Origin: Acidobacteriota bacterium
Lineage (GTDB): Bacteria; Acidobacteriota; Blastocatellia; UBA7656
Assembly: GCA_016201275.1 (NCBI GenBank)
Contig: JACQDB010000030.1
Span: 65,864-129,863 of the forward strand
Direction of reading: 5' to 3'
DNA: 64,000 bases
Of the stretch, positions 2,892-45,142 are shown one piece after another. Numbering within the stretch: position 1 is the stretch's first letter; every line of letters starts with the position of its first letter. The notes beneath the pieces were generated by a model. It had not been told where the DNA came from. It made no database searches and was given only the letters and a program-made list of their open reading frames with translations. A program made the position numbers and the translations under genes.

Positions 2892-4217
2892 TCAATTCGT
2901 ACTCATGTTCTGGAGCGTTGCAAAGAACGGCGTCTCTTCCATAGCTCTACTGAAAATAAGTTTTTCCGCCGTGGAGACCATCATCAACCGGGCATCCGAT
3001 TTGCGATACATTCGGTAGTTGATGAAGAGGCGAATCGGAGCCATTTCAGGAGCAATATTTTCTGTTGCAAAAGGATTCTCTACGAACGCCTCTATATCAA
3101 TCGAAAGAACATCGTGCGCGGATGCGTTATTGAGATAGGCGCTCTGGCGACGAACTAAGGTGCGTCTATCAATCAACTCGTCCGTGAGCGGCAACTCGGC
3201 GGTTGCCAAAACGTCGCGCTCGCACACATCCAGAAAGACCGGATAGTTGGCGAAATAGACCAAACCCGCGCCATTCAAATCTCGATCCGGCACCAGCTTA
3301 TACTCTCTATTGATCGCCCCTTTGGTCATCGGCACAAAGCCTGGAGGCGGCAGCGCAAAGTGGCAGTCTTTTTCAGCCCGCTTCACCGAAGCGTAAGAGT
3401 CCGGCGCTTCGGACATCTCGGTGATGCGCTCGAAGCCGGGGTTTGCGGGGCGCGATTTCTTCAACCACTCCGCGCCGCCGAATTGCATAACGAAAATATT
3501 AGAGAGACGCACCGCCGGAACGCCCGCTGCCAACGCTGCCTCTATGTTGGCGAACGCCGGTGTGGTGGTCTCCGGATAATCTTCGGGCAGCAAATAAAAA
3601 GTGCCATCCAGCATCGAAGCGCCAAAGCGTTGCAACGCGCTGGCGGCTTTCAGTCTATCGTTTTCGCCAAACGCCGCCATCGGGCGATGCCTGGGAAAGC
3701 CGATCTCAACATAAAAGAAGGTCGGATAAAGGCGATGCCCTTCGGCATCCACGATCTGTTTACTTGGTACGCCGCAAAGGTGGCTGAGGTGTCCCCAACG
3801 CAGATCACCGAGTCTTTGCAGTAAGGGGCCTTCGGCCAAATGATTTCGCCCGGTCAGCGGCATTCCGATTTCGATGTCGGCATAGAGCATACCGGATGGC
3901 CTATATCGGCGTTCGCTGGTTGGCCGCGCATCCGGTTGCGCTGGCGCTACGACGTTGTGGTTTGCCGCCCCGTTGAGCGCCGCTTTCTTGTTGCTGAGGT
4001 AATCCACCAGTTCGGCCATGGAACGAAAGCTCAACCAGACGCTATCGGACAGATGAACCTGGAAGACGCTTTCCAGCGTTTCGCGCAGCACCAGCAATTG
4101 CAGAGAGTCAATGTTGTAATGCGTGACCCACTTCAATACATCAAGGCTCGCTTCATCGGTTTTGGACATCTCGGCAACGATGCCTTTGACCTGAAGCTCC
4201 ACCATCGCTTTATCCAT
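2892..4217 (-). CDS. Acyl-carrier-protein domain fused to a ~360-aa domain of uncertain function (possibly LnmK/Pnap_2097-like acyl-ACP forming/processing)
   Basis: The N-terminal ~80 aa resemble an ACP, with a candidate phosphopantetheine-attachment Ser in NIDSLQLL. The remainder is not recognisably similar to any enzyme I can name with certainty. Confidence 0.5.
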   Translation of the reverse strand: MDKAMVELQVKGIVAEMSKTDEASLDVLKWVTHYNIDSLQLLVLRETLESVFQVHLSDSVWLSFRSMAELVDYLSNKKAALNGAANHNVVAPAQPDARPTSERRYRPSGMLYADIEIGMPLTGRNHLAEGPLLQRLGDLRWGHLSHLCGVPSKQIVDAEGHRLYPTFFYVEIGFPRHRPMAAFGENDRLKAASALQRFGASMLDGTFYLLPEDYPETTTPAFANIEAALAAGVPAVRLSNIFVMQFGGAEWLKKSRPANPGFERITEMSEAPDSYASVKRAEKDCHFALPPPGFVPMTKGAINREYKLVPDRDLNGAGLVYFANYPVFLDVCERDVLATAELPLTDELIDRRTLVRRQSAYLNNASAHDVLSIDIEAFVENPFATENIAPEMAPIRLFINYRMYRKSDARLMMVSTAEKLIFSRAMEETPFFATLQNMSTN

Positions 4218-4248
4218 AAAAAGTTTTCAACCTCATGACCAAGCTCAA

Positions 4249-4989
4249 TTAGACCTTGGCCGGAATCGGATACGCTTCGTCGGGCAAATCTTTGCGCGTC
4301 TTGTCGAAGATCGTTTCATAATCATCGGGCGTGAGTCGGCGTTGCGGACGCGCCGGAACCCCGACGATCAACGAATAACTTTCATCAATCGGGCGCGTCA
4401 GCAAAGAGCCTATGCCGACGATGCAGCAATCCGGCACACTAGCACCCGGAGCGATGCGTAGTTCCGAGCCTAGATAGCAATAATTGCCAATCTCTACCGG
4501 AGCGCTTTTGCGCCGATTGTGTGTCCAGATGGAAGAATTCCGTCCGCCCAACATCGAGCAACGGCCAATCGTCACGCGGTCGGTAAAGTCTATGCGATGC
4601 TCGGCGGTCACCACCGCGCCATAGCCCAGATAAAACGACGGGTCAGGGTTATTGGTGCAGTCGTTATCGGGAATCGCGTTGATGATATTTTGACGAATGA
4701 CTAGCGAATAATCGCCCAGGTAAATGCTCTTGCCGCCGCGAAACAGATTGAGCCAGCCGATGATGGCGTGTTTGCCGATCTGCACCTCGCCACATTGCCA
4801 GAAGACTACGCCGGTCGCAATGCGCGCGTTGTCGTCTATGACGAGGCGGGCGCAATCTAAAAAGGCCATGCCGATGCGGACGTTTCGGCCTATGCGAAAG
4901 CCGAAGCACAGGCGATAGACCGGGCGCTTCAAAATATTCGGCAACACAGCGGCGCATAGCAGACCAAAGATTCGCAAATACTTTTTCAT
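4249..4989 (-). CDS. Hexapeptide-repeat (left-handed beta-helix) acyl/acetyltransferase
   Basis: 246 aa with repeated [LIV]-G-x-x-x-x-I hexapeptide units (IGRNVRIG, VQIGKHAIIG, VTIGRCSMLGG, VEIGNYCYLG). Confidence 0.6.
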   Translation of the reverse strand: MKKYLRIFGLLCAAVLPNILKRPVYRLCFGFRIGRNVRIGMAFLDCARLVIDDNARIATGVVFWQCGEVQIGKHAIIGWLNLFRGGKSIYLGDYSLVIRQNIINAIPDNDCTNNPDPSFYLGYGAVVTAEHRIDFTDRVTIGRCSMLGGRNSSIWTHNRRKSAPVEIGNYCYLGSELRIAPGASVPDCCIVGIGSLLTRPIDESYSLIVGVPARPQRRLTPDDYETIFDKTRKDLPDEAYPIPAKV

Positions 4990-5122: not shown

Positions 5123-6775
5123 TTATTTTTGCGGAGCGAAGGTGATGATTTTATATACCAGGCGTTGGCGTTGGTCATAAATCCCCTGCTCTTCCCGTAC
5201 CACCATGCCGGATTGTTGCGCCGCTGAGGCGAGGGCGATTGGCGCGCCGGGAAAGACTGTGGACGCGGGCGCGTTGACGACGAAAATATTATTCGTATCG
5301 GCTACCAGTTGCCGTAGCTCTTCTTGAGGTTGAGACGATTGCCGGTACGGATTAAACGACTCCCGCAAATACAATTGCCCTTGCGAGAGAAAAAACAGGG
5401 TATTGCCCAAGCCCCAATCCATCAGTTGAATCGGGCGGTCGGGGTAGCGTCTCTGTAACAGGTCGGCCAGTTGATAAATCTCCGCGCTCCAAGCTCCCGC
5501 GCCGCCTGTGTTGTGCAGCAAGCGGCGATAACTCGCCAGCACCAAAAGATTCGCGCTCACCGCCAGCACAACTACGGCTGTACCAAGCCATCGGCATACT
5601 GTGCGCCAGCGATTTTGTCTGACCACACGCTTCCACAAAGTCACCAGCGTTAAGGCAACCGCCAAATGTGGAAAAGGATAAATGCCGATCCAGTGATGTC
5701 CGCCGATCAGGCGCGGAGTTAAATAGATTTGCGCCGCCATCGCCAACATCACAAGCGGCAGAAACAACCATCGCCAACGCCGTTTTAAGATGGCGATGGC
5801 GATGAGCGCCAGCATGGCGAAAAGCGACAAAGGCAGCAACAGCGTATGGGAAACGCCCCAACAGGGCGATAGTTTTTCGCCGCACATCAATACGTCGAAC
5901 CCGCGTCCGTCGAGCAGGTTTTTCAACACCGCCGTGCGTTCGGGAAGTAAACCCAGCAAGCGCGTCAGGGAAGCCTCTTCGCCTGGCCGGGCGATCAAAC
6001 GAAAAGTGATCCAGTGTTCGGAGAGATTATAAATCCACAGCGGGGCGCTCGCCAAAAGTCCCGCCAGCACCGCCCAAAACCAGGGTATAAACGTGAGGCG
6101 CGGACGATTTTTATTGATGCTCCAGGCCGCTGCCCCAACTCCCATGAGTGCCACAATGAACCACAGGAAATTCGTTTTATCGTAAATGCCCAAGCCCAGC
6201 AAAGCACCGGCGAGAATCAACGCATAGGTATTTTTTCCGGCGCTCTTCCACCAACGATAAAGGAACAATAGGGCTGCTGCGCGCAAGGCAAAAGCTATTG
6301 CCATCGGCCCGTAGTCAGAGCGCGAATAGAGAACCAACGAAGGATCGGTGGCCACCAGCCAAACGCCCACCACACTCACTTGCCGCCCGTACATGGCGCG
6401 GGCAAAACGCGATGTAAACAGCAGTCCGATTATCGTCACCAAAATGTTGGTGAGACGAAATGCTGTGACGTGAATGCCGAAGACGGAAAAGACCAGCGCG
6501 AAAAGATACGCTTTCAACGCGCCGATATATTGATAGCTCATCAACGCGAAGGTGCGTCCGCCAACGGTGAAAGAGCCGAAGTGACGATAGTTCCCGTTGA
6601 TTTCTCCCTTGACCAGGTGTATAGCCGAAGGGGTTTGCAATACCTCGTCATATTGAATTCCCGGCAAGGTAAGATTCGCCGCCGCCGACCACAGATACGT
6701 CGCCATAGCGGAAGCGAGCAGCGCATAATAAATTTTATTGCGCTGCTTTCGTATCAACCGTGATGTCGTCTGCAT
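5123..6775 (-). CDS. Polytopic membrane glycosyltransferase, ArnT/PMT (GT39/GT83)-like
   Basis: 550 aa with at least 10 predicted TM helices. N-terminal region has the DE/aromatic loop layout of undecaprenyl-phosphate-sugar dependent GT-C enzymes. Pairs logically with the DPM1-like GT2 at 15302-16429. Confidence 0.5.
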   Translation of the reverse strand: MQTTSRLIRKQRNKIYYALLASAMATYLWSAAANLTLPGIQYDEVLQTPSAIHLVKGEINGNYRHFGSFTVGGRTFALMSYQYIGALKAYLFALVFSVFGIHVTAFRLTNILVTIIGLLFTSRFARAMYGRQVSVVGVWLVATDPSLVLYSRSDYGPMAIAFALRAAALLFLYRWWKSAGKNTYALILAGALLGLGIYDKTNFLWFIVALMGVGAAAWSINKNRPRLTFIPWFWAVLAGLLASAPLWIYNLSEHWITFRLIARPGEEASLTRLLGLLPERTAVLKNLLDGRGFDVLMCGEKLSPCWGVSHTLLLPLSLFAMLALIAIAILKRRWRWLFLPLVMLAMAAQIYLTPRLIGGHHWIGIYPFPHLAVALTLVTLWKRVVRQNRWRTVCRWLGTAVVVLAVSANLLVLASYRRLLHNTGGAGAWSAEIYQLADLLQRRYPDRPIQLMDWGLGNTLFFLSQGQLYLRESFNPYRQSSQPQEELRQLVADTNNIFVVNAPASTVFPGAPIALASAAQQSGMVVREEQGIYDQRQRLVYKIITFAPQK

Positions 6776-8476: not shown

Positions 8477-10464
<1,988 letters not shown>

Positions 10465-10489
10465 GATCGTTATTGTTCCGAATTGAAAA

Positions 10490-11584
10490 TCAAACCTGTG
10501 CCTGCGCGGTACGCTCGGCAATCAGTGAGGCGAACAAATCATAGACTCTGGGGGCTTGCGAGACAGCCGAATAGTTGGCTTCGACGGTGGCGCGTCCGGC
10601 ATCACCAAGCCGTTTTCTCAACGCCGCCGATTCCAGCAGCCGAGTCAGTTTCTCAAGCCACTCGGTTTCCGTAGCGGCCAAAAATCCGTTGTTATCATCG
10701 CAGATGATGTCGGTGTTGACACCCACCGGCGAACAGATCGTAGGGATACCTAAAGCCATGTATTGCAGGGCCTTCAAACCGCATTTGCCGCGACTCCATT
10801 GATCGTCCGGCAACGGCATCACGCCTATATCAATGGGGCGCAAATCAGCGACTTCGGTGGCAGCGCGCCAAGCCATCGCATCGAGCTCAACGCCAGGAAG
10901 TTCATACTGTGGCGTGCCAATCACGCGCAAACGAAACGACACGCGCCCGGCCAGTTTCTGCAACGCGCCGCGCAAAGTGTCCAGATGCTGCACGGTACTG
11001 TAACTGCCGCTCCAACCGATTACGGGAACCTCGTTTTCGGGCTTCGGTTGTGGACGATATTTTTCCGTATCAATGGTCGTCGGCACGATGGTGACGCGCT
11101 CGTTAACCTGTCGCGCATAGTCGGCAAGATAAGCATTGCCCGTCATGACACCAGCAGCGACGCGGCAAATTGCGCGGGTCTTGGCGGGAAATTTCAAATA
11201 GCTGAGATAGCCGTTGGCCGGACTCACATACGGCACGAAGATGGCATCATCGAAATCGAAAACCATTGGCACAGCCGAGCGCGCCATCCAGCGTTCAAAG
11301 ATCGCCGGTCCCAGCAACGCAGCTTCGCGGAACACATAGACGGCATCGAATTCAGCAACGCTTCGTACCTGGGCAAAGCGACGCACAAAGGCTTGTGCGA
11401 TCAAGCGCGCTTTGGTCGCCAGATGGCCTGCTTGATAAAGTGCCGTGTGGAGTTCGGCATTTTCAAACGCCGCATAGACAATCTCGACGCCACGCCGTTT
11501 GAGCAAAGGTTCCCATTGCTCTATGCGGAACCTTTGACCGGGCGAAGTATCGAACAGACTGGGAACAATGGCCAGCAATCGCAT
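10490..11584 (-). CDS. Glycosyltransferase family 4
   Basis: 364 aa, GT-B. The C-terminal half has the GT4 E-x7-E-like region ([26 protein letters not shown]). Confidence 0.8.
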
Positions 11585-18392: not shown

Positions 18393-19409
18393 TCATTTCA
18401 ATAGCGCAAGCTCCGGCATTTGAGTATAAATCCGTTTCCCTAATTCCTGAGAAAAAATTGCCGCGCCATCTTTATTCACATGTACACCATCTAGAAAGTG
18501 GTTTGTTGACAAAAAAGGAGACATGCTGAAATCAAGCAAAGTAAATTTTAACTCGTCCTGCAAATAGCCCATTCGTTCAACCATCTCTTCCACTATCTTG
18601 TCGCGTTTTCTCAACGGTGGTATGACCAATATAAATTTGAAATTGCGATTTCGCGCCAGGAGTGCCAAGTCTCGAATCACCTGAATCTTTTCAACTTTTA
18701 TCTCTGATGAAGTTGCCAATGAAGTCGAGGGCGAAGGATTCCGTGCTGATGGTTCAGGAGTTGCCTCAATCAAGGGGGTAAACCCGCGCTGTGCCCAAGT
18801 CTGTTTGAGGCTCTCCTTTGCAAAGCTGGAGTTCTTCACATAAGGAGTAACGCGCATCAGCCATAACAGTCGCATCTCTTTGTAGAACGAAAAGGGAGAC
18901 TCGACTCTTTTACAGATCGGCGAATTTAATATTTGCGCCTCAGCTTTGTCGGTCGCCAGAAAGCCGTAGGGGCTGAACAAGGCAATGACTACTTTTGGTG
19001 GCGCATAGGGTTCGTTAAGCAGTGGGAGCGTTGTGCAATGACAAGCCATAGGATAGTTCGCCGGAGTCGCCAGATTATAACTATCAACGGCAGCGGGTAA
19101 TGTAGTCCGTAAGGCTTGGAGGTCAATGCCGAAGCGCGCCGTTGAGTCGCCAATGATGACAAGATTAGGCGCTGCTCCCTGCATGATATGTTGACGATAT
19201 GCCTCAAATCGAAAGCCAGACTCATCTTCCCAGTATTCACAATAGGGAGAGACGCTATGAACCAGCAATCGTGCGCCAACTTCTGCGACAAAGACAAGGG
19301 CGAGAGTTAACGCCAGCGCTCGAAAAAATCCTTTCGGTCTGGCTTTCTCCAAGCGCAACGTATCAAAACTGAAAATAGATGAACGGAATATTGGCACCCA
19401 AGCCTCCAA
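18393..19409 (-). CDS. AlgJ/AlgX/DltD-like O-acetylation partner protein (SGNH-like, membrane anchored)
   Basis: N-terminal TM anchor, then LVIIGDSTARFG (GDS motif). Lies immediately downstream of, and overlapping, the MBOAT gene, as in algI-algJ and dltB-dltD pairs. Confidence 0.5.
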   Translation of the reverse strand: MEAWVPIFRSSIFSFDTLRLEKARPKGFFRALALTLALVFVAEVGARLLVHSVSPYCEYWEDESGFRFEAYRQHIMQGAAPNLVIIGDSTARFGIDLQALRTTLPAAVDSYNLATPANYPMACHCTTLPLLNEPYAPPKVVIALFSPYGFLATDKAEAQILNSPICKRVESPFSFYKEMRLLWLMRVTPYVKNSSFAKESLKQTWAQRGFTPLIEATPEPSARNPSPSTSLATSSEIKVEKIQVIRDLALLARNRNFKFILVIPPLRKRDKIVEEMVERMGYLQDELKFTLLDFSMSPFLSTNHFLDGVHVNKDGAAIFSQELGKRIYTQMPELALLK

Positions 19410-20799
19410 AAATCAGAATCAAGATGATTAAACTGGCATAACATACGCCTCTCACAAACCATCGTTGCTTGAGGATGAATACCTCATCGTGGCTGAACTC
19501 TTGTGCTATATCCAATGCAAAGATGCCTACGCACAAGGCCGTGATACGCAAGCCCAATAGGGATGCAGGAGAATTGGCTGTCGCCGGATGCCAGGTAAGT
19601 ATGCCGTACAGATATTTCCAGGCCATGCCAAACGATTCGGCACGAAAGAAAATCCAAGTTAGAGCGACAAGATGGAACGTGGCAACAACCTTCAACAAAA
19701 GGACAAATTTGTCTAGCAAACTGGTCGGCAAACTTTCACTCTTGATCGGGGTTCTATCCAACAAGAATTTATGCGCGGCGAGATATAAACCATGCAGTCC
19801 GCCCCAAACCACAAAGGTCCAACTCGCGCCATGCCACAAGCCGCCGAGTAACATGGTGAGCATCAAGTTGCGATAGGTTTTTGCCACAGCATCGCGGTTT
19901 CCCCCCAACGGTATATATAGATAATCGCGCAGCCAGGTGGACAGCGAAATATGCCAACGATGCCAGAAGTCTGTGATCGAAGCAGCGAAATAAGGGCGGT
20001 TAAAATTGATTAATAGCTCAATACCAAACAGCTTGCTAACACCTCGTGCAATATCCGTATAACCAGAAAAATCGCAGTAGATCTGCACCGAAAAAAGATA
20101 GAGCGCAACGAGCAAATCGAAGCCGGAGCAGCTCGCCGGATTCAGAAAACGAAAATCCACAACCGGCCCCAGAGCATCGGCAACACCAACCTTTTTGAAG
20201 AAACCGATGAGAATCAGCAGCAGACCTTCGCGAACCAGTTGCCAATTGACCCGCCTCGGTCTTGCTAGCTGCGGCAAGAGATTGGCAGCGCGGGCAATCG
20301 GTCCAGCAACCAGTTGAGGGAAATATAATACATATAAGACGTAGAGCCAGAAGTCGGACACCGGCTCTAAATCCTCGCGGTAAACATCTATAACATAAGA
20401 AAGCTCATGAAAGGTGTAAAACGAAATGCCCACCGGCAAAATGATACTCAAGGTTGGTAAAGCATGGTGTACACCGATGGCATTCAACAATGTGTCGGTC
20501 GAGCCAATGAAAAAATTAAAGTATTTGAAAAATCCCAGAATCGTCAGGTTGGTGCAGACACTGAACAGTAGATAGGATTTTTTTCTTTTTGGTTCAGCGG
20601 CACGATGAATTTGTAACGCACAGAGGTAATCAATTACCGTTGGAACAATCAAGAGAAGTAGAAATCGCGGATCCCACCAGCCATAAAAAACTAGACTGGC
20701 TAGCAGCAGCCAGAAATTCTGCGCTCTGGTTTTCAGCGTAAAGTAAACCGATAAAACCAAAGGTAGAAAAATAGCAAAGGCGATGGAATTAAAAAGCAT
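19363..20799 (-). CDS. MBOAT-family membrane O-acyltransferase (AlgI/DltB-like)
   Basis: 478 aa polytopic protein with FWHRWHISLSTWLRDYLYIPLGG and LGGLWHGASW (conserved His of MBOAT). Confidence 0.9.
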   Translation of the reverse strand: MLFNSIAFAIFLPLVLSVYFTLKTRAQNFWLLLASLVFYGWWDPRFLLLLIVPTVIDYLCALQIHRAAEPKRKKSYLLFSVCTNLTILGFFKYFNFFIGSTDTLLNAIGVHHALPTLSIILPVGISFYTFHELSYVIDVYREDLEPVSDFWLYVLYVLYFPQLVAGPIARAANLLPQLARPRRVNWQLVREGLLLILIGFFKKVGVADALGPVVDFRFLNPASCSGFDLLVALYLFSVQIYCDFSGYTDIARGVSKLFGIELLINFNRPYFAASITDFWHRWHISLSTWLRDYLYIPLGGNRDAVAKTYRNLMLTMLLGGLWHGASWTFVVWGGLHGLYLAAHKFLLDRTPIKSESLPTSLLDKFVLLLKVVATFHLVALTWIFFRAESFGMAWKYLYGILTWHPATANSPASLLGLRITALCVGIFALDIAQEFSHDEVFILKQRWFVRGVCYASLIILILIFGGLGANIPFIYFQF

Positions 20800-20933: not shown

Positions 20934-22277
20934 TTAGAAGGCTTTGGAAATATCGGTTGATTCTTTCCGATAGGGAAACCGTTTTTTCAAGTTATTAATA
21001 GGCCGTTCAAAAATCTCCCAGGAGATGGCTGCTGCGGCAATCGCAAAGGTACACGAGAGGATAAAATAAATGGCTGTATTCATGTGAGGAAGCGAAAGTA
21101 GGTCTCTCTTCATCGCCGCATAAATAAGCAGTACCAGCAGCAGGCTGGAACTACCAAGATAAAATAACGGTTTCACTATGGCGGCATTGATCAGAAGGCG
21201 CTGCAATTTTTTTGAAGCGATAACGCTCATCAATGAGACAAAAACCAGAGTAGTGATTATGGAAGCCACCAGCATCGGTCTCTGCTTTAACAGACTTAAT
21301 AGCCCATCAAGAACGCCCTGAATACAGCTATGATAAACGTAGATGCCATAGCTGATCGTCCCCATATAGAGCAGCGATTTGGATTCAAGAATTTTACCGA
21401 ATATGCCTGTGAACCCTTTTGCGGCGGTTGCGATCAACCAAACACAAGACAATCCCATAACAATATCAAAGGTTAGAAATTGCCATAGCGCACCGCTCTT
21501 CAGATAATAAAGAAAGAGGTCAACAAAGAGCAGTGGCACGCCCATATATAGGGCGATCTTCAAAAAAATCTGCCGACTACGAGACTGTGCAAAATCCTTA
21601 TTTGACAGCAGTGCCAGCAATGCGCCAAGACCCAGTGTGTCCAGACAAGCAAATGGAAGAACCGCCCAGTTGCTAAAATTCAACCCGAGCACCGCGATGC
21701 TCAATCGGAAGATCGGAGCCAGCAGTATCACCCCAAAAATCACTTTGAGGAGGTGTCTCCTTGAGGTATAGAGAATCACCCAAGGCCAGACAAGATAAAA
21801 CTGCTCTTCAACAGCAAGCGTCCAGAAGGGCGACAACGCGCCAGGCCAGTTTCCCGTTTTGGTTATATAGACATTCGATAAATAGGTGGCGTGCCAGAAA
21901 AAGGTCTGGCGTGCAGGAGCCATATTGACGATCACTGCCAAAAGTAAGACAAAATAGAATAGCGGGAAGATGCGTAGAAAGCGCCGTATATAAAATCGTC
22001 GCAAGGTAAAGCCGATGCTTTGCTCTGTGGTGTCAGTAATCTCTTTGCATTTCAGGAGAATTCCGGTGATAAGAAAGCCGCTCAAAACAAAAAAGAGCTT
22101 TACCCCCATAGCGCCAAAAGGGGCTATAGCTATTGAGGCTGGCAGGAAGTGCTGAAGCAGAACCCCTGATACGGCAAACGCACGCAGCGCATCCAACTGC
22201 ATCAGATGAGGAACACGCTGTTCTCTTGTCTTGCTGTCAGTATCTAATTTCAGCATTAAAGGATTTGGCGGAATCAA
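20934..22277 (-). CDS. Acyltransferase family 3 (OafA/YrhL-like) membrane O-acetyltransferase
   Basis: LDALRAFAVSGVLLQHF...GVKLFFVLSGFLI N-terminal signature, at least 10 TM helices. Confidence 0.85.
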   Translation of the reverse strand: MIPPNPLMLKLDTDSKTREQRVPHLMQLDALRAFAVSGVLLQHFLPASIAIAPFGAMGVKLFFVLSGFLITGILLKCKEITDTTEQSIGFTLRRFYIRRFLRIFPLFYFVLLLAVIVNMAPARQTFFWHATYLSNVYITKTGNWPGALSPFWTLAVEEQFYLVWPWVILYTSRRHLLKVIFGVILLAPIFRLSIAVLGLNFSNWAVLPFACLDTLGLGALLALLSNKDFAQSRSRQIFLKIALYMGVPLLFVDLFLYYLKSGALWQFLTFDIVMGLSCVWLIATAAKGFTGIFGKILESKSLLYMGTISYGIYVYHSCIQGVLDGLLSLLKQRPMLVASIITTLVFVSLMSVIASKKLQRLLINAAIVKPLFYLGSSSLLLVLLIYAAMKRDLLSLPHMNTAIYFILSCTFAIAAAAISWEIFERPINNLKKRFPYRKESTDISKAF

Positions 22278-27545: not shown

Positions 27546-29993
27546 TTATCCATTGCTCACCTCGACGTTTTGAAATATCGCCGCCAGTTGGCGAGTGTTT
27601 TTGGTAAGGTCAAAAGCGACTTCGATTTTCCGACGTGCAGCGCAACCAAGCGCCCGACTAAACTCCACATCCTGAATCAAATGCTCTATCGTATCAGCCA
27701 ACCCAACCTCATCTTTTTCCGGCACCAGCAGGCCCGAAACGCCGTCTTCAATCAATTCCGGGATGCCGGAAAGCGGAGTCGAAACCACTGGCAATCCCAT
27801 CGCCATCGCTTCCATAAGCGCCACGGGAATTCCATCTATATGTTCTCCCTGTCCACGCATATCAAGGCACGCCAAAACAAACAAATCGGCTTTTTGAAGG
27901 CGACGAATAACTTCATTGTTTGGCAACGAACCACAGAGCGTTACCGTTTCCGCCACCTCTAACGCCTCAATTTCATCTTGAAATCTTTTTTCGAGATTGC
28001 CATCGCCAATAATCTCGCAGCGCAAGTCAAGCCCTCGGTCACGTAATTCTTTGCACGCCCGAATCAAATAACTGTGCCCTTTCTGAACCATGAGCGTACC
28101 AATAGAAATAATGTAACAAGGTGCTGAAAATTGTGCTTTCTCCCCGTCCCCAGACAATCTATTGGTATCCACGCCCAAATAATTGACGATGATTTTTTTC
28201 GTCTCTATACCCTTGTAGGTCGCGCCGATATAGTGCTTATTGAACGCCGAGATGGTTCGCATAAAACGGGCTTTGCTGGTCTTCCACACCAATGAGGGGT
28301 TGGGATTGAAGATGTCATACGCGTGTGTCGTAAAACTAAAGTCCACGCCTGCGAGTTCAGCCGTCAAATAGGCTAGGGTGGTCGTGCGCGTGCCAAAGGT
28401 GGCGTGCAGATGCGTAATGCCATCGCGGCGCACCCTCTTTGCATAGTAGGCCGCCAAAATCAGCATTCGCAGCGAGGCTTCTGGTTCACGAAACAGAAAT
28501 ATCAGAAGCTTGAGGAAGGTCAGCGGCTTGCGAAGCAACACCCATCCCAAAGCCGTCAACACGCCTCGATAATAAGGGGCGAAATAGAAACTTTCCTGAC
28601 GCAGACTCTCTTTTACCGGATCAATTTTAATCGCCGGACGGAAGGCGTTAAAGACGCTCACCGCAGCGCCTTGTTTCCGCAGTTCAAGAATTTCATTGAC
28701 CACAAAGGTCGCATAGCACTCGACGAAATAGCCCAGCCGCAGACCAGCACTCGGATAATCCTCCGGTAAGGAGCGATACACCCGCTCCATCGCATCAGTC
28801 ACTGCTGTCGGCGTGTAATCGCGCACATAATGCTCCCGTCCGCGCTGCCCCATTTCGACGCGCCGTTCCGGGCTTTCAACCATTATGCGGAAACGCTCCG
28901 TCAAAGCGTCAATATCGCCGACATCAACCAGATAACCGGTGACTCCATCTTCGACAAAATCCGGTATGCCGCCAAAGTTGGAGGCAATCACCGGTTTGCC
29001 ATACGACATGGATTCGGTGATTGGCATACACTGCGATTCAGAAGCTGAGGTCAGCGTGAAGACATCAAACTGCTGCATCACATCTTCAAGCTTTTCAAAC
29101 TCGCCGGTAAAGGTCACACGATCCTCGACGCCCTGCTGACGGGCAAATTCCTGTAGCGCCTCGCGCATAGGCCCGTCCCCGGCAATCACCAGCCCGACAT
29201 CATGTCCTTCCCGACAGAGATTGCGTAAAGCCAGCATCAAGTCTTGATGGCGCTTATGCGGCACCAGTCGCCCAATAGCGCCAAAGTTCACTCTGCCATC
29301 ACCGTTGCGCCGCGTTTTTAATGCCCGCTCTCCGGGGTCTTGAATCATAAACGGAATCGTTGCGATTTCGCCCTTGTAGCCATAGATGCGACGCAGGCAA
29401 TCGGCAACCGAGCGCGAACAACAGATCACCCGCTGCGCTTTATTGATGGCGGCTACTGTGCTCTCTAATTGCCAGGTCTTGATGTACAACTCATCAGCTT
29501 CGCCCATCTCGTGATAGATGGAATAGACGCCGTGCTGTTCAGCCCATTCCAGAAGCCTTGGCGTCAAGGCCGCAGGTCCCCAGATTTGCAAGATGACCTG
29601 GTCTCTGCCAGCAATGGTTTGCGAAAGCTCCTTAAATATACGGCGCTTTTCCAGGCGACTGAGCCGCGTCAAAACAATAGAACCGACCGCCTGCCAAGCA
29701 TCCTGCAACGAATGGCGACGCCACAACGCATAAGGCAACACCAGCAACAGGCTGGCAAGAAACCGCAGCCAGCGCGCCATCCGCAACTCTTCATAGCGCG
29801 GCCATACTCCGACCGGCACGCCGATTTTATTGAGCCATTGGATGTAACGATGCTGTGGATTGAACGGTGGGCGCGTAAACAGCTTGATGTCATAGCCGCG
29901 CCCTGCCAGTTCCTGCACCAGCAACGACATGGCGTGTTGGCCGCCGCCGGTCGCCGATAACACAGTAGTATAAAAAATAATCAGCGGTTTCAT
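27546..29993 (-). CDS. Tandem fusion of two GT4 glycosyltransferase modules
   Basis: Two complete GT-B units. Each ends with a GT4 motif: ESQCMPITESMSYGKPVIASNFGGIPDFVEDGVTGYL, and EHIDGIPVALMEAMAMGLPVVSTPLSGIPELIEDGVSGLL. Start set to internal ATG 29991-29993 (MKPLIIFYTT), giving an ATGA overlap with the upstream gene. Confidence 0.8.
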   Translation of the reverse strand: MKPLIIFYTTVLSATGGGQHAMSLLVQELAGRGYDIKLFTRPPFNPQHRYIQWLNKIGVPVGVWPRYEELRMARWLRFLASLLLVLPYALWRRHSLQDAWQAVGSIVLTRLSRLEKRRIFKELSQTIAGRDQVILQIWGPAALTPRLLEWAEQHGVYSIYHEMGEADELYIKTWQLESTVAAINKAQRVICCSRSVADCLRRIYGYKGEIATIPFMIQDPGERALKTRRNGDGRVNFGAIGRLVPHKRHQDLMLALRNLCREGHDVGLVIAGDGPMREALQEFARQQGVEDRVTFTGEFEKLEDVMQQFDVFTLTSASESQCMPITESMSYGKPVIASNFGGIPDFVEDGVTGYLVDVGDIDALTERFRIMVESPERRVEMGQRGREHYVRDYTPTAVTDAMERVYRSLPEDYPSAGLRLGYFVECYATFVVNEILELRKQGAAVSVFNAFRPAIKIDPVKESLRQESFYFAPYYRGVLTALGWVLLRKPLTFLKLLIFLFREPEASLRMLILAAYYAKRVRRDGITHLHATFGTRTTTLAYLTAELAGVDFSFTTHAYDIFNPNPSLVWKTSKARFMRTISAFNKHYIGATYKGIETKKIIVNYLGVDTNRLSGDGEKAQFSAPCYIISIGTLMVQKGHSYLIRACKELRDRGLDLRCEIIGDGNLEKRFQDEIEALEVAETVTLCGSLPNNEVIRRLQKADLFVLACLDMRGQGEHIDGIPVALMEAMAMGLPVVSTPLSGIPELIEDGVSGLLVPEKDEVGLADTIEHLIQDVEFSRALGCAARRKIEVAFDLTKNTRQLAAIFQNVEVSNG

Positions 29994-31174
29994 GATGTCA
30001 AATCCAAGGCTAGCAAAGCATCCACATAAAATTTCGCCGCCCAGTTTGGATAGCGGAATGGGTCGTAGCCGCCCCATACGGGATGCGAACCTTTGATGCC
30101 GCCGCATATCGGGTCATCCGTGGCGGTCAGACAAACCTGCGTGCGTTTGACAAAGCCGAGCAGTTTCTGTGCCGCCTCAACGTATTCTCTCTTTCCCGTC
30201 AGCTTCGACAAACGTATCCACACATAAGCAATCTGGCAAGCGCCGGTTAAACAGTTCCATGACACCTGCGGTTTCCAGTCGGCATCAAACCGGCCTCTGA
30301 GAAAACCGTCTGCTTCTACATGGTTCAATAAATGCTCCGAGGTCAACAGCACCGCATTCAAGTAGCGCTCTTCCTGCAACATCATCGCCGCGTCTAAAAA
30401 ACCTTCTAGGGTATAGCCGATGGTGTGCGTCAAGGGTTTGGTGTTATCGGTCAGGCACTTGTTATCAAACCAGCCGTTGGCTCTCTGTTGCGTCAGCGCC
30501 CAATCAAAATTGCGAATCGCGGCGCGCTTGACCCGCTCATCTGCGAGCAATTCACCGGCTTCTAGCAGTGCCGAAGCGCTGCGGACATTATAGGTCGCGG
30601 GCGTCTGTAAGGTCAGCGGCGACATAAACCGTCGCCAGCAACCATCCTCATCCTGTACCTCGGTCAACCACTGCGCGGCGCGCCGCAAACTGTCGAGTAG
30701 CGCATCATCGTGAGACTCACGATAGGCATGACACCAGCCCTGCAATACTTGACCGGTGTTAAAGATCGTCGGTTGCGGATTGGTGCCCAGCGTCCCCCCC
30801 TGCACCGCGCCACTCTCCATCTGCACAGTGGTCAGCCAGTCAGCCATCCGCCGCGCCCGCTCACGCATGAGGTTGGCTCGCGCCGCTCTACCATCGGCTT
30901 CGCACCGCCGCGCATAGTTCAGAAAGGTGGGGATGATGTAGCCGGTGGTTTCCGGGTATGGCGGCAGCCAGCCGCTTCGCAGGTCATAGCCATATGAGAC
31001 CCCGCCGCCTTTGACCTGATCCTGAGCGCGGCACAACCAATTTATAGTCTCGTCAATATAGACGCCGGTTTCGCAACCGTTGGTCGCCAATTTCAGATCG
31101 CGAAGACTGGCGCGCAGCGTCTGCCGTGAAGCGAGGATTTCTCTAATGGTATAAAGATCAAAGGGTAATTTCAT
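29990..31174 (-). CDS. alpha/alpha-toroid protein with QW-like repeats (prenyltransferase / squalene-hopene-cyclase-like or glycoside-hydrolase-like fold)
   Basis: Repeated Q-x-x-(D/N)-G-x-W units (VQDEDGCWRRF, TQQRANGWFDN, VQMESGAVQGG) spaced about 45 aa apart. Confidence 0.4.
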   Translation of the reverse strand: MKLPFDLYTIREILASRQTLRASLRDLKLATNGCETGVYIDETINWLCRAQDQVKGGGVSYGYDLRSGWLPPYPETTGYIIPTFLNYARRCEADGRAARANLMRERARRMADWLTTVQMESGAVQGGTLGTNPQPTIFNTGQVLQGWCHAYRESHDDALLDSLRRAAQWLTEVQDEDGCWRRFMSPLTLQTPATYNVRSASALLEAGELLADERVKRAAIRNFDWALTQQRANGWFDNKCLTDNTKPLTHTIGYTLEGFLDAAMMLQEERYLNAVLLTSEHLLNHVEADGFLRGRFDADWKPQVSWNCLTGACQIAYVWIRLSKLTGKREYVEAAQKLLGFVKRTQVCLTATDDPICGGIKGSHPVWGGYDPFRYPNWAAKFYVDALLALDLTS

Positions 31175-34512: not shown

Positions 34513-35514
34513 TTAATAGTCCCGTACAATCGGCTGAAGGTTATAGTTTGATGCGTTGAATGGATCAATGCCTTCCAGACTTGCGCGATTCGAGAACACG
34601 ATGAAAGGCGGTTTATAGGAAAACAGCGCTTTATTAAAGCTGTTTTTCAGAAATTGATTTTCTTCGTAAGCCTGCCTGAGCGGTTCATCCGTCGGCTCAA
34701 ACGTATAAATAAACGTGAAGCCATGTCGGTCAAACAGATAGCTGCAAACTTCGTTCATCACCTTTTTCAGCAACTCTTTATCCGATACCTGCACATAATG
34801 AATAAAGCACCGCCGTTTTTCTTCCTCTTTCCAAATCACCAGTCCGCAGAGCCGATTGGCTTGAGAAACTTTCACTATGCGATAGGCAATCAACGGGTGC
34901 GAAGCGATGCGCCAATTCAAAAATTCCCGGTTGATCTGTTGCTTGATAGTCGGTGAAGGTGTGGCTGCCGGTTCGGCAAATTCATTGCTGAACTCCTCAC
35001 CGAAAGATTCAATCTCTTCGAGAACGAAATCCCGCTTCCTTTGAAACAGATTTCGCAGCTTATGATAATGCTTCTCCAAAAAGATCAAATCAATTAACTT
35101 CACGGTTTGCCAATTCAACTTTTTGATAAACCCCGGATAAGAGGTTTCTCCGGGAAAGCCGATGACCAGTACCCATCCCTCTCTGGCGATCTGGTGTTGA
35201 TAGGTTCTTTCGGCAAGGCGGTTGAAAAGTCCCATTCTGCGATACTCCGGGTGGGTCATGGTATCCATAGACTGAAAGAACGTAACTGGTTGCTCATCAA
35301 TCAGATATTGTTCGGGAATCATTCCATAGAAGGCGGCGATTTTAGCGCCATCAACAGCCACATAGCAGACGGCTTTGCCCGCCGGATTATCCAGAAGTTT
35401 CCAGTGAAAATAATCGGCAGGTGGCTGCACGCCAAAACACAGAGAATAGAGTTCTGCCAGTTGTGGAAAGTCTGTTTGCCGAACCTCTCGATAATCAAAA
35501 TTGATTTGCTTCAT
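34513..35514 (-). CDS. GNAT-family N-acyltransferase (possibly FemAB-like, two-lobed)
   Basis: GNAT motif A region HPEYRRMGLFNRLAERT in the N-terminal lobe. 333 aa suggests a duplicated fold. Confidence 0.55.
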   Translation of the reverse strand: MKQINFDYREVRQTDFPQLAELYSLCFGVQPPADYFHWKLLDNPAGKAVCYVAVDGAKIAAFYGMIPEQYLIDEQPVTFFQSMDTMTHPEYRRMGLFNRLAERTYQHQIAREGWVLVIGFPGETSYPGFIKKLNWQTVKLIDLIFLEKHYHKLRNLFQRKRDFVLEEIESFGEEFSNEFAEPAATPSPTIKQQINREFLNWRIASHPLIAYRIVKVSQANRLCGLVIWKEEEKRRCFIHYVQVSDKELLKKVMNEVCSYLFDRHGFTFIYTFEPTDEPLRQAYEENQFLKNSFNKALFSYKPPFIVFSNRASLEGIDPFNASNYNLQPIVRDY

Positions 35515-37599: not shown

Positions 37600-38724
37600 T
37601 CACGACCCCAATATCTCTTGTAGAGATTCACAAACATATTCAACTTTTTCTCTGGAAAGATTGAGGCCACTGGGCAGATTTAATCCAGATGGGGCTATCT
37701 CGTAAGCGTTGCAGTTCCTAGCTCTGGCTAACGCGGCTTGCGGCATCTCAGCGTAAGCAGGAATCGAACTCAAGGGATAAAACAAGGGGCGGCAATCTAT
37801 ACCTTTTTCAGATAACCGATTCATCGCCTCTTCTTTCGCCAATTGCCATCGCTTATCGAAAAGAACGCTCACCATCCAGTAGGTGTTTTTTACCCCAAGG
37901 GCTTCACGGTTGAGGGTGATTCCTTCGACATCCATAAGCCCTTGTTGATACCAGTGAAAAATCTCGCGCTTGCGTTCGACGAGTTCTTCGACTCTCTCTA
38001 ACTGGGCAAGTCCCAATGCCGCCTGCATACTCGACATCTTATATTTATGCGCCACCTCGGTATTCCAAAACAATTTATCGCCGGGTTTGCGTCCATGGTC
38101 TTGCAGAAAGCGACAGCGTTGATAAAGCTCTTCATCATCCGTGAGCAGCATTCCGCCTTCCCCAGTCGTCAAGGTCTTTGACCCGTGAAAGCTGAAGGTG
38201 CTTAGGGAGCCAAAGCTCCCCGCTTTTTTCCCTTGATATTCGCTGCCGATGGATTCCGCCGCATCTTCAATCACCTGTATGCCGTGGCTCTGGGCAATCT
38301 CCAGTATGGCGTCCATATCAGGCATATTGCCGTAGAGATTGACCACGATGACCGCTTTGGTTCGGGGAGTGATATTTTCCAGAAATGAGTTGGCATCCAG
38401 ACACCACGAGTCTTTATCAACGTCTGCAAAAACGGGTTGCGCGCCAACGTATGAAATCGGCGCGGAACTGGCAATCCAGGTAATCTCAGGAACGATCACC
38501 TCGTCTCCTGCTTTGACCCCCAGACTCAGTAGCGCCAAGTGGAGCGCCGAGGTACAGGAAGGCAACGCCATCGCATACCTTCGTCCAACATACTCGGCAA
38601 ATGCTGTCTCGAACTTTGCGTGGTACATATTGGCATTGCCATACCAGGCATTGGTGACCGCATCGGTGACATAATCAATCTCTTTTTGGGTGATCCAAGG
38701 ACCCGAAACCGATATGCGTTCCAT
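37600..38724 (-). CDS. DegT/DnrJ/EryC1/StrS-family PLP-dependent NDP-sugar aminotransferase
   Basis: ISVSGPWITQKEIDYV..., and SFHGSKTLTTGEGG with the PLP Lys in the SKT context. About 374 aa from the internal ATG, which is too short for an E1 3-dehydrase. Confidence 0.88.
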   Translation of the reverse strand: MERISVSGPWITQKEIDYVTDAVTNAWYGNANMYHAKFETAFAEYVGRRYAMALPSCTSALHLALLSLGVKAGDEVIVPEITWIASSAPISYVGAQPVFADVDKDSWCLDANSFLENITPRTKAVIVVNLYGNMPDMDAILEIAQSHGIQVIEDAAESIGSEYQGKKAGSFGSLSTFSFHGSKTLTTGEGGMLLTDDEELYQRCRFLQDHGRKPGDKLFWNTEVAHKYKMSSMQAALGLAQLERVEELVERKREIFHWYQQGLMDVEGITLNREALGVKNTYWMVSVLFDKRWQLAKEEAMNRLSEKGIDCRPLFYPLSSIPAYAEMPQAALARARNCNAYEIAPSGLNLPSGLNLSREKVEYVCESLQEILGS

Positions 38725-38729
38725 CTTTC

Positions 38730-39482
38730 CTAATCCTTCACACATTTCAAATAGCCGTCAGGAGCTACGGTAATGAGCAATTTATTTTCTATCTCTTTAT
38801 CTATTTCAAAGCGGTCATTTTTTTTCAGAAATTCATGCACGGCTGTTTTGGGATTGTTGCCTTTACCCCAGGGGCGATCCTGAAAAAAATCTTCCGGCAA
38901 ATCTTCAATCACCGTATCAAACACCACAAGATAGCTGCCCTTGGATACCAGTGGCGCATAGAGTTGTAACTCGCGCAAGACGTGGTCATGGGAATGATTG
39001 GAATCCAAAATCACAAGAACTCTTTCCTTGCCTTTAGCAAAGTTATGAACCTTTTCCACCACCAACGAATCAACCGATGAGCCTTCAAGGATTTTTATTC
39101 TTTTATACATCGGGTGCTTTTCAAGCTCAATTCTATTGTGGCTTCTCACCTCAATATCTATTCCTAAAATTTCTCTCGTGCCACCAATCAATTCCAGCAT
39201 GGAGGCATAAAAAATCAAAGACCCTCCATGCGCGATGCCAGTTTCGATGATGAGATCAGGTTGAACCCGCCAAATAATTTCTTGCATGGCAAGAATATCT
39301 TGCGGGAACTGAATAATCGGTCTTCCCATCCAAGTAAAATTATAGGAATACTTGTATTTGGAAACTTCTGTTATCCAGGTGTTAGAAGTTTTTGCGATGA
39401 GAGAATTCTCTCCTAATCTTCTGATGTTTTCGGCTTTTTCTTCTTCAAAGGAAGTCATAAAGAGTCTCTTGCTAAAAATCAA
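38730..39482 (-). CDS. CmcI / cephalosporin-hydroxylase-family protein (class I methyltransferase fold; sugar O-methyltransferase-like)
   Basis: 250 aa. RPIIQFPQDILAMQEIIWRVQPDLIIETGIAHGGS matches the CmcI family core. Confidence 0.6.
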   Translation of the reverse strand: MIFSKRLFMTSFEEEKAENIRRLGENSLIAKTSNTWITEVSKYKYSYNFTWMGRPIIQFPQDILAMQEIIWRVQPDLIIETGIAHGGSLIFYASMLELIGGTREILGIDIEVRSHNRIELEKHPMYKRIKILEGSSVDSLVVEKVHNFAKGKERVLVILDSNHSHDHVLRELQLYAPLVSKGSYLVVFDTVIEDLPEDFFQDRPWGKGNNPKTAVHEFLKKNDRFEIDKEIENKLLITVAPDGYLKCVKD

Positions 39483-40287
39483 ATTGGTTATGCCGTTGCA
39501 TAATTGTCATTCTAATGGGGCTAAATTTTCCGACCCAAGGGAGTTTGACGGCTACTTGATGGATTTCATGGTTATAGTCAGGAGTTTCTCCGCGCATTTC
39601 GCACATCGCCGAATAAATCACCCTTGTGGCAAAGTAATAAGAACTCGAAAAATCAAGAAAGCTGATGCGCTCAAAAAACTCTTCCGCCAAGCCTACAAAC
39701 TCTGTCTCTTTGAAATACAGATTATGCCATCTGATAGGAATCTCTTTTAGCCCTACAGACTGACGGGCAGCGGTCAAATTTTCTTGCCCTTCAACAAAAT
39801 TTTCTACTGCCAGATAGTAGCCGCCGGGCTTCGTATGTTTGGCGATTTGTGCGATGGCGCGCGACTGCGCTGCCACAGAATCTAAATTGATTAGACAACG
39901 GTCTGAAATAACCACGTCGAAAAGCTCTGCGTCACAAGTCTGGTCAATATCCATCGCGTTGCCCACTTTGAATAAGACTCTGTCCTTTAGTTCAGCAGTA
40001 TTTTCTATATTTGCCTGCGCCAAACTTATCATTTGCTCACTATAATCGAGTCCCAGAAACTGAACTTCAGGAAATTTTTGAGCAATCTGAATCGTTGAAT
40101 AACCATCACCACACCCTACGTCAAGAACGCTCTTGAGCTCCGGCAAATCCAGTTGACTCATCCTGTCAATGAACGTGGCGATTTCAATTTTTCTTAGATA
40201 AATATCATCTGTAGTGGCTGAAGTCCTGCCTACATTTTGTGCCGCTCTCTCATCCCAATATTGCTTGATGTTTAAATCCTTATCCAC
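39472..40287 (-). CDS. Class I SAM-dependent methyltransferase
   Basis: VLDVGCGDGYSTIQIA ... FDVVISDRCLINL ... PGGYYLAVE. Confidence 0.75.
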   Translation of the reverse strand: MDKDLNIKQYWDERAAQNVGRTSATTDDIYLRKIEIATFIDRMSQLDLPELKSVLDVGCGDGYSTIQIAQKFPEVQFLGLDYSEQMISLAQANIENTAELKDRVLFKVGNAMDIDQTCDAELFDVVISDRCLINLDSVAAQSRAIAQIAKHTKPGGYYLAVENFVEGQENLTAARQSVGLKEIPIRWHNLYFKETEFVGLAEEFFERISFLDFSSSYYFATRVIYSAMCEMRGETPDYNHEIHQVAVKLPWVGKFSPIRMTIMQRHNQFDF

Positions 40288-40290
40288 GTC

Positions 40291-40842
40291 TCACTCCTTG
40301 AAATCCTGATAGGAAAGATCTTTTTCAGAGATCGAACGAATCTCCAAAGGTAAGCGAATACCAAAAGTCGCATCATCCCATCTTACGCCTCTGGCGCTTT
40401 CGGGATAATAAAACTCAGACATCTGGTAAAAGACTTCCGTGTTGTCGGCAAGCGTTTGAAATCCATGCGCGAAGCCTTCCGGTATGTAAAGCATCCGGCG
40501 ATTCTCTGCCGTAAGCTCTACTGCCAGCCATTGCTTGAAGGTTGCGGAACTCTCGCGCAGATCAATCATCACATCGTAGATTGCGCCCATCGTACAACGC
40601 ACCAACTTCACCTCTTGGTGCGGCGCAACTTGATAGTGCATACCGCGCAACGTACCTCTTTTTTTATTGAAAGAGATACTGCATTGCACCAGTTTGGCAT
40701 TCAAGCCATGCGCTTCAAATTCGCCTTCACACCAAGTCCGCGCAAAAAAACCTCTCTCATCTACCAACCTCTCCGGCTCTATCAGGTATGCGCCTTTTAG
40801 TTTCAATTCCGTGAATACCATAAGCCAGTGTGCTATCTTCAC
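40291..40842 (-). CDS. NDP-4-keto-6-deoxyhexose 3,5-epimerase (RmlC-like cupin)
   Basis: 183 aa. ERGFFARTW..., RGMHYQ..., and EVKLVRCTMGAIYDVMIDLR...YIPEGFAHGFQTL match the RmlC catalytic His/Lys/Tyr layout. Confidence 0.85.
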   Translation of the reverse strand: MKIAHWLMVFTELKLKGAYLIEPERLVDERGFFARTWCEGEFEAHGLNAKLVQCSISFNKKRGTLRGMHYQVAPHQEVKLVRCTMGAIYDVMIDLRESSATFKQWLAVELTAENRRMLYIPEGFAHGFQTLADNTEVFYQMSEFYYPESARGVRWDDATFGIRLPLEIRSISEKDLSYQDFKE

Positions 40843-45141: not shown

Positions 45142-45142
45142 A

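Follow-up and report, generated by a model that had tools for sequence, protein, structure and literature searches.

A candidate self-loading acyl carrier protein-LnmK fusion paired with a beta-helix acyltransferase in a polysaccharide locus of Acidobacteriota

An acyl carrier domain encoded inside a polysaccharide locus raises a simple question: which acyl group does it carry, how is it loaded and which enzyme receives it? This situation is encountered in a 64-kb stretch of an Acidobacteriota genome (Blastocatellia, UBA7656; assembly GCA_016201275.1, contig JACQDB010000030.1, positions 65,864 to 129,863), referred to below as the window. A 441-aa protein combining an acyl carrier protein (ACP) domain and a LnmK-type domain is encoded there directly downstream of a 246-aa left-handed beta-helix acyltransferase. 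Both open reading frames (ORFs) and the N-I-D-S-L motif of the carrier domain were found exactly where a first-pass annotation had placed them. Sequence comparison, structure modelling and the analogy with LnmK make one answer somewhat probable. The 441-aa protein would be a self-loading acyl-ACP generator, and the beta-helix enzyme would use its product, with propionyl as the candidate acyl group, to acylate a sugar.

The AlphaFold2 (AF2) model of the 441-aa protein was built from 48 homologs and has a mean predicted local distance difference test (pLDDT) score of 92.6. Three parts are resolved: the helical bundle of residues 1-86 is joined through a disordered linker (87-99) to an alpha/beta domain that spans 103-441. 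Within the bundle, helix II (38-52) opens at Ser38, the canonical place of the ACP serine. This residue is invariant in all the homologs covering the position (112/112), and the preceding Asp37 of the D-S-L motif is kept in 109 sequences of the alignment. The first-pass annotation had described this N-terminus as ACP-like, a description upheld by the conservation of the serine. The same annotation had proposed a LnmK- or Pnap_2097-like identity for the C-terminal domain, and only the first half of this proposal stands. Residues 116-380 reach 114 bits with the NCBIfam model TIGR04098 (LnmK_bifunc), above its cutoff of 100, and the best sequence match of the whole protein in the PDB is LnmK (4HZO, 6X7L; E 1e-10). 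The seven top Foldseek matches in the PDB are all LnmK structures, with a target template modelling (TM) score of 0.86-0.87, a root-mean-square deviation of 2.9-3.1 Å and an E-value of 1e-24. They stand well apart from the next class, the acyl-ACP thioesterases (TM ~0.7, E 1e-12). The predicted structure is thus matched by an enzyme of acyl chemistry and not by an unrelated one. Membership in the Pnap_2097 family (TIGR04099) was rejected, the score being 57.5 bits for a cutoff of 125 and the alignment covering the N-terminal ~85 residues of the LnmK domain.

LnmK decarboxylates (2R)-methylmalonyl-CoA, with Phe65 stabilizing the enolate, and the propionyl group is moved onto Tyr62 and then to LnmL (PMC11350588). 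In the HMMER alignment, Tyr62 is matched by Tyr164 of the window protein and Phe65 by Phe167; the two residues are found in 119/121 and 120/121 members of the family, respectively. On the basis of these alignments and of the model, it is highly probable that the 441-aa protein belongs to the LnmK family and carries a functional ACP. Its architecture is not due to chance, since more than 100 homologs, mostly acidobacterial, share the same ACP-LnmK arrangement; a profile search among 1.84 billion representatives returned 116 clusters at E <=1e-30. The assignment of the LnmK domain is not new in itself, because automatic annotation already recognizes the protein family: homologs are labelled 'TIGR04098 family' by JGI and 'LnmK family' by NCBI. 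A literature search produced nothing relevant on the ACP-LnmK fusion, on TIGR04098, TIGR04099 or Pnap_2097, or on a link between LnmK and polysaccharide acylation.

Two other groups of homologs were encountered. LnmK-like stretches are found at the extreme N-terminus of giant proteins of 4,000-6,600 aa (such as P0273, P0301, P0304, P0314 and P0317), which the profile matches in many separate places; these stretches may serve polyketide synthases (PKS) as modules for decarboxylative loading. Stand-alone LnmK homologs (L019, L020, L022-L025) occur in unrelated contexts, with radical S-adenosylmethionine (SAM)/B12 genes or a peptidase, and were left out. Among these ACP-less proteins, those of L020 (6818-9760) and L019, at ~44 % identity, lie beside B12-binding radical-SAM genes or a subtilase.

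From its sequence and its model, the second protein of the pair can be classed as a left-handed beta-helix acyltransferase, though a divergent one. In the AF2 model (pLDDT 94.1), two helices at the N-terminus lead into a beta-helix made of short strands. The Pfam Hexapep match is weak (19.3 against 27), and the best sequence match in the PDB is LacA (E 1e-7). The catalytic His115 of LacA aligns poorly, an invariant histidine, His157, lying 5 residues downstream; the invariant positions include H131 and the W155-T156-H157-N158 stretch. WcaF is the best match in NCBIfam, and membership in this family was rejected at scores far below the cutoffs (45.5 bits against 192 for NF007797 and 34 against 326 for TIGR04008). 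The other NCBIfam matches (NeuD/PglB, LacA and WbbJ) are all far under their cutoffs. Most of its nearest relatives belong to the O-acetyltransferases (WcaF, WbbJ, LacA), with N-acetyltransferases of the NeuD/PglB type scoring similarly. Fold comparison returned beta-helix proteins only, none of them close (TM <=0.6), and such generic matches say nothing about the acceptor. A protein identical to this enzyme is annotated in an Acidobacteria metagenome-assembled genome (MAG).

One indication that the two proteins work together comes from gene fusions. Among the 120 best ACP-LnmK homologs, 17 are single polypeptides in which a beta-helix domain, an ACP and a LnmK domain follow one another in the order of the window genes. 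The fused beta-helix domains belong to two classes: eight are of the type found in the window (type A) and nine are of a type B characterized by a LacA-like 'DGHP' motif. Of 23 distinct ACP-LnmK loci, 13 have a beta-helix gene next to the ACP-LnmK gene or joined to it, and in two more such a gene lies within 5 kb. Before duplicate loci were merged, the corresponding count of 14/24 gave P ~7e-9 under a crude chance rate of 10 %. The linkage is also visible in the beta-helix sequences themselves. Type-A proteins linked to ACP-LnmK carry Met146 and a Lys, Arg or Gln at position 161 in 14 cases out of 14, and Arg214 in 13 out of 14; the window enzyme has Met146, Lys161 and Arg214. In the five type-A proteins verified as unlinked, these positions are occupied by Ile146, by Ala, Ile or Thr161 and by Lys or Ser214. 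Met146 is present in only 9 of the 121 aligned type-A sequences; the sequences that carry it form three separate lineages, and the window protein is nearer overall to unlinked homologs than to the other linked ones. Such a signature is the pattern that would be expected of a donor-recognition switch. The coupling of ACP-LnmK to the beta-helix enzyme, proposed by the first-pass annotation on the basis of adjacency, is likely in view of the fusions, of the recurrent adjacency and of the linkage-specific residues. The N-acyl substituent put forward by the first-pass annotation is conceivable; in locus L034, the pair lies among WbpB/WbpE-like amino-sugar genes.

Synteny also reveals how the fusion gene is placed. 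Loci L038 and L039 reproduce the order of the window, with a family 4 glycosyltransferase (GT4), a 458-aa membrane protein, a GT1, a GDP-mannose 4,6-dehydratase (GMD), fcl, an epimerase, the beta-helix gene, a GMD-like gene and asnB. They differ from the window by exactly two missing genes, ACP-LnmK and PMT_2. In L005 and L007, too, the beta-helix gene and asnB are present while ACP-LnmK is absent. The association is therefore one-directional and ACP-LnmK behaves as an accessory donor gene, which, by comparison of these gene orders, is inserted directly after the beta-helix gene within a conserved core. A recent horizontal insertion was rejected, as the GC content of ACP-LnmK and PMT_2, overall and at third codon positions (GC3), matches that of their neighbours. 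The same comparison removes asnB from the module in which the first-pass annotation had included it: the gene is kept in these four loci without ACP-LnmK and most ACP-LnmK loci have no asnB nearby. It also makes doubtful that the pair marks the end of the locus, as had been stated. Beyond asnB, syntenic loci go on with a GT4, an epimerase and a WecA-like initiating transferase, and the window locus, too, probably extends past this gene. The GMD-like gene, whose product has 329 aa, is kept beside the beta-helix gene in syntenic loci. With 398 bits, this dehydratase paralogue stays just below the equivalog cutoff of 415, and its activity may be a modified one, such as that of a Rmd-like reductase.

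A plausible mechanism can be drawn from these elements. A phosphopantetheinyl transferase (PPTase) encoded elsewhere would convert Ser38 to the holo form. The LnmK domain would then bind and decarboxylate (2R)-methylmalonyl-CoA, and the propionyl group would be moved onto Tyr164 and from there to the thiol on the carrier domain tethered within the same protein. With propionyl-S-ACP, and not an acyl-CoA, as donor, the beta-helix enzyme would modify a repeat-unit sugar while it is still in the cytoplasm; a nucleotide-sugar or an intermediate linked to a lipid is the most likely acceptor. The domain architecture, the family membership, the conserved catalytic and attachment residues and the genetic coupling to beta-helix transferases are observed here, whereas the nature of the acyl group, the direction in which it moves and its acceptor are inferred. 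By analogy with LnmK, the case for a propionyl group derived from methylmalonyl-CoA is evenly balanced. An oxygen atom of a 6-deoxyhexose is a rather doubtful guess for the acceptor, made because the gene lies among GDP-6-deoxyhexose genes and because its best family match is WcaF-like. An acyl-CoA or AMP ligase had been anticipated just outside the window. None was recognized among the scanned ORFs of the 64 kb, and the syntenic loci show no ligase beyond asnB. The absence of an AMP-ligase from the window fits a direct loading from a CoA thioester, and under the self-loading interpretation such an enzyme would not be needed. The scanned ORFs of the window also contain no recognizable exosortase, ketosynthase, FabH or chain-extension gene, and no HMG-CoA synthase, enoyl-CoA hydratase (ECH) or PKS of a polyketide beta-alkylation cassette was found in the 64 kb.

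The genes that accompany ACP-LnmK in other phyla and loci bear on the substrate. In two loci from Verrucomicrobiaceae/Prosthecobacter MAGs, L030 (7257-13829) and L027, an MBOAT, a 313-aa protein, ACP-LnmK and both subunits of methylmalonyl-CoA mutase (first the small one, then the large one that binds B12) follow one another, with touching stop and start coordinates between the ACP-LnmK and mutase genes. Methylmalonyl-CoA mutase makes (2R)-methylmalonyl-CoA, the substrate of LnmK, and its presence in the verrucomicrobial operon supports methylmalonyl-CoA as substrate and propionyl as product. Taken as a whole, this operon looks like a Dlt-like surface acylation system fed from succinyl-CoA via methylmalonyl-CoA; its 313-aa protein is possibly SGNH-like, by motif reading only. 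In four acidobacterial loci, L014 (8752-12307), L026, L031 and L032, ACP-LnmK lies directly downstream of a FabH-type ketoacyl-ACP synthase (KAS) III, and in L014 it is followed by a FabK-like NMO gene. These FabH-linked fusions may supply a propionyl- or acetyl-ACP primer for fatty-acid synthesis. From this distribution, ACP-LnmK looks like a portable acyl-ACP generator used with different acceptors, its partner in the lineage of the window being the beta-helix enzyme.

Several observations weigh against a propionyl-ACP generator dedicated to the beta-helix enzyme. The N-terminal domain scores 20.3 bits with the Pfam PP-binding model (PF00550), just under the gathering threshold of 20.8, even if a precomputed match to this model exists for most homologs. 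No PPTase was recognized in the window. The mutase association is limited to two related verrucomicrobial loci, where the partner is an MBOAT and not a beta-helix gene, and the LnmK domain may use malonyl-CoA, which would yield acetyl-ACP, or another substrate. The FabH neighbours of the four acidobacterial loci imply that the product of the fusion feeds more than one pathway. On the side of the acyltransferase, the solved relatives use acyl-CoA. Syntenic loci that lack ACP-LnmK encode type-A homologs with 60-77 % identity, from which it follows that this class of enzyme has no intrinsic need of an ACP donor.

The likeness of the verrucomicrobial operon to a Dlt system suggests a different destination for the acyl group, in which acyl-S-ACP would be handed to the MBOAT and the 338-aa protein of the window for acylation of the polymer outside the cytoplasm, the beta-helix enzyme separately using acetyl-CoA. 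In the Dlt system, it is the carrier protein DltC that supplies DltB with the acyl group. The window MBOAT, whose best NCBIfam match is DltB, is 40 % identical to that of L030 (tblastn E 1e-84), where MBOAT, 313-aa protein, ACP-LnmK and mutase form a single operon; similarity between the 338-aa and the 313-aa proteins is weak (E 1e-5 over 82 aa), and GDS/GNS and DxxH motifs can be seen by eye in both. This route is nevertheless improbable. The MBOAT lies 14 kb away from the fusion gene, and six Pfam-annotated ACP-LnmK contexts (L001, L003, L004 and L034-L036) have no MBOAT within 6-10 kb, whereas in each of them a beta-helix gene is adjacent or at most three genes away. Neither the triple fusions nor the Met146 signature would be explained. 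Another possibility, that the two neighbours act on unrelated substrates, can draw on the abundance of beta-helix acyltransferases in polysaccharide loci and on the type-A homologs that often lack ACP-LnmK. It is hardly credible, as 17 independent fusions involving two beta-helix classes, the adjacency or fusion in 13/23 loci and the recurrence of a linkage-specific residue signature in three lineages would all have to be coincidental.

Two further explanations concern the chemistry of the fusion protein. The C-terminal domain could be a hot-dog thioesterase or dehydratase editing or releasing an acyl group that another enzyme has loaded on the ACP. Acyl-ACP thioesterases do constitute the second tier of structural matches (TM ~0.7), and residues 312-376 weakly match the YbgC and 4HBT families. 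With LnmK clearly on top by both sequence and structure, its catalytic Tyr and Phe nearly invariant, and no loading enzyme (AMP-ligase or acyltransferase domain) in the window or in the conserved neighbourhoods, this explanation is quite improbable. Otherwise, the propionyl- or acetyl-ACP made by the fusion could prime a chain of the fatty-acid or polyketide type, such as a lipid anchor, and not provide a short sugar decoration. Such a role would agree with the FabH gene placed directly before ACP-LnmK in L014, L026, L031 and L032, with the FabK-like gene of L014 and with the LnmK-like N-termini of the 4,000-6,600-aa multi-domain proteins. It is very unlikely for the window, where neither a ketosynthase nor a FabH or chain-extension gene is found within the 64 kb, and where the partner in this class of locus is consistently the beta-helix transferase. 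Sugar acylation by the beta-helix enzyme from a self-loaded carrier is hence the interpretation kept here, with moderate confidence.

The polysaccharide locus surrounding the pair extends over ~50 kb of the window, entirely on the minus strand, and its main features are listed in the table. The two genes are separated by 31 nt, with no terminator-like site on the minus strand between them or before the next gene; the promoter and terminator scans yielded site counts below those of shuffled controls. On an identical contig, a gene caller places the start of the fusion gene at an ATG at 4205, giving a protein of 437 aa. The best match of the asnB fragment, which spans 73 % of the model, is TIGR03108 (XrtA/PEP-CTERM amidotransferase), with 496 bits against a cutoff of 817.

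Table. Coordinates of the pair, its domains and the other features of the locus in the window
Feature	Position	Strand	Remark
asnB-like glutamine amidotransferase	3-1364	minus	C-terminus beyond window edge
GMD-like gene, 329 aa	1764-2753	minus	between ACP-LnmK and asnB-like gene
ACP-LnmK fusion gene, 441 aa	2892-4217	minus	
LnmK-type double-hot-dog domain, residues 103-441	2895-3911	minus	Tyr164 codon 3726-3728
Flexible interdomain linker, residues 87-99	3921-3959	minus	pLDDT <50
Acyl carrier domain, residues 1-86	3960-4217	minus	Ser38 codon 4104-4106, motif N-I-D-S-L
Left-handed beta-helix (hexapeptide) acyltransferase, 246 aa, type A	4249-4989	minus	
PMT_2 (ArnT-like GT-C) glycosyltransferase	5123-6775	minus	directly upstream of beta-helix gene
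Second GDP-mannose 4,6-dehydratase paralogue	9418-10521	minus	
338-aa protein	18393-19409	minus	GDS and DxxH motifs by eye (SGNH-like look)
DltB/AlgI-like MBOAT	19363-20799	minus	
Acyl_transf_3 protein	20934-22277	minus	
394-aa protein	29990-31174	minus	match to squalene-hopene cyclase C-terminal repeat model (PF13243, E 2e-8)
GNAT	34513-35514	minus	
Nucleoside diphosphate (NDP)-sugar branch	37600-43839	minus	
C-methyltransferase with Zn-ribbon	40839-42113	minus	in NDP-sugar branch
ABC-2 Wzm/Wzt-type transporter	43861-46021	minus	
Wzc	46057-48462	minus	
Wza	48540-49799	minus	
Wzy_C	49818-51239	minus	

In addition to these features, the locus contains a deacetylase, many glycosyltransferases and methyltransferases, a fucose-synthase-like gene and an epimerase. 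Its NDP-sugar branch also comprises a nucleotidyltransferase, a 4,6-dehydratase-like protein, a 3,5-epimerase, a CmcI-type O-methyltransferase and a DegT aminotransferase, a set that would yield an amino-deoxysugar in branched or methylated form. Wzy-dependent export components occur in one locus together with an ABC-2 transporter, which suggests that export follows two routes or that two polymers are made. The MBOAT, the 338-aa protein and the Acyl_transf_3 protein form a group of three further candidate genes for O-acylation; counted with the beta-helix enzyme and the GNAT, they bring the acyltransferase systems of the locus to at least four. The PF13243-matching protein found in the middle of the locus is unexpected in a polysaccharide context.

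Non-acetyl short-chain acyl groups on surface polysaccharides alter antigenicity, recognition by phages and hosts, and polymer physics. To our knowledge, the route by which such groups are supplied is rarely established, and carrier-protein donors for beta-helix sugar acyltransferases are known essentially only for the long-chain enzymes of lipid A. If the present interpretation is correct, an enzyme of polyketide beta-branching has been recruited to glycan decoration, where it provides beta-helix sugar acyltransferases with a carrier-protein donor. The novelty would reside in a dedicated short-chain carrier, loaded by decarboxylation through a polyketide-type enzyme. More generally, the association of beta-helix, ACP and LnmK, as two genes or as one polypeptide, could constitute an uncharacterized machine for placing C3 groups on polysaccharides by decarboxylative self-loading. 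ACP-LnmK would then be portable across at least three acceptor systems (beta-helix enzymes, DltB-like MBOATs and FabH), and the Met146-type signature would mark a switch of donor from CoA to carrier protein. This wider proposal is tentative, its chances being judged somewhat short of even. An ACP-LnmK gene next to a Met146 beta-helix gene offers a simple genomic marker by which unusual acylation could be predicted in soil Acidobacteriota, which are abundant and poorly studied, and such a small module (two genes, or one in the fusions) could be used for the engineering of propionylated polysaccharides.

Among known systems, the closest to the 441-aa protein is the LnmK/LnmL pair of leinamycin biosynthesis in Streptomyces atroolivaceus (4HZO, 6X7L). 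The double-hot-dog fold is shared (TM 0.87), the TIGR04098 cutoff is passed, the equivalents of Tyr62 and Phe65 are kept, a dedicated carrier protein is present in both cases and the mutase association fits (2R)-methylmalonyl-CoA. Sequence identity is nevertheless 22 %, and the ACP of the window protein is fused N-terminally whereas LnmL is a separate protein. The contexts differ as well: LnmK/LnmL operates in polyketide beta-branching with HMG-CoA synthase, ECH and PKS in Streptomyces, while the window protein is found in a polysaccharide locus of Acidobacteriota with a beta-helix partner. The Pnap_2097 family (TIGR04099) is a distant LnmK relative to which the window protein does not belong.

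For the acyltransferase, LpxA and LpxD provide a precedent of beta-helix enzymes moving an acyl group from an ACP to an oxygen or nitrogen atom of a sugar, and the LpxD-ACP complex (4IHH) is among the weak structural matches of the 246-aa model (TM <0.5). These enzymes handle long 3-hydroxyacyl chains carried by the housekeeping AcpP, however, whereas the window enzyme would receive a putative short acyl group from a dedicated and sometimes fused carrier. WcaF, WbbJ and LacA are the best matches at the level of families and PDB sequences, with WcaF and its like sharing the polysaccharide-locus setting, but they use acetyl-CoA and the scores of the 246-aa protein are far below the family cutoffs. 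The DltA-D system, finally, is comparable in its logic, with a dedicated carrier delivering an acyl group for a surface polymer, and the verrucomicrobial operons do pair ACP-LnmK with a DltB-like MBOAT. It relies on an adenylating ligase, in contrast to the decarboxylative loading from a CoA thioester proposed for ACP-LnmK, and it hands the acyl group to an MBOAT, whereas in the lineage of the window the partner of ACP-LnmK is a cytoplasmic beta-helix enzyme.

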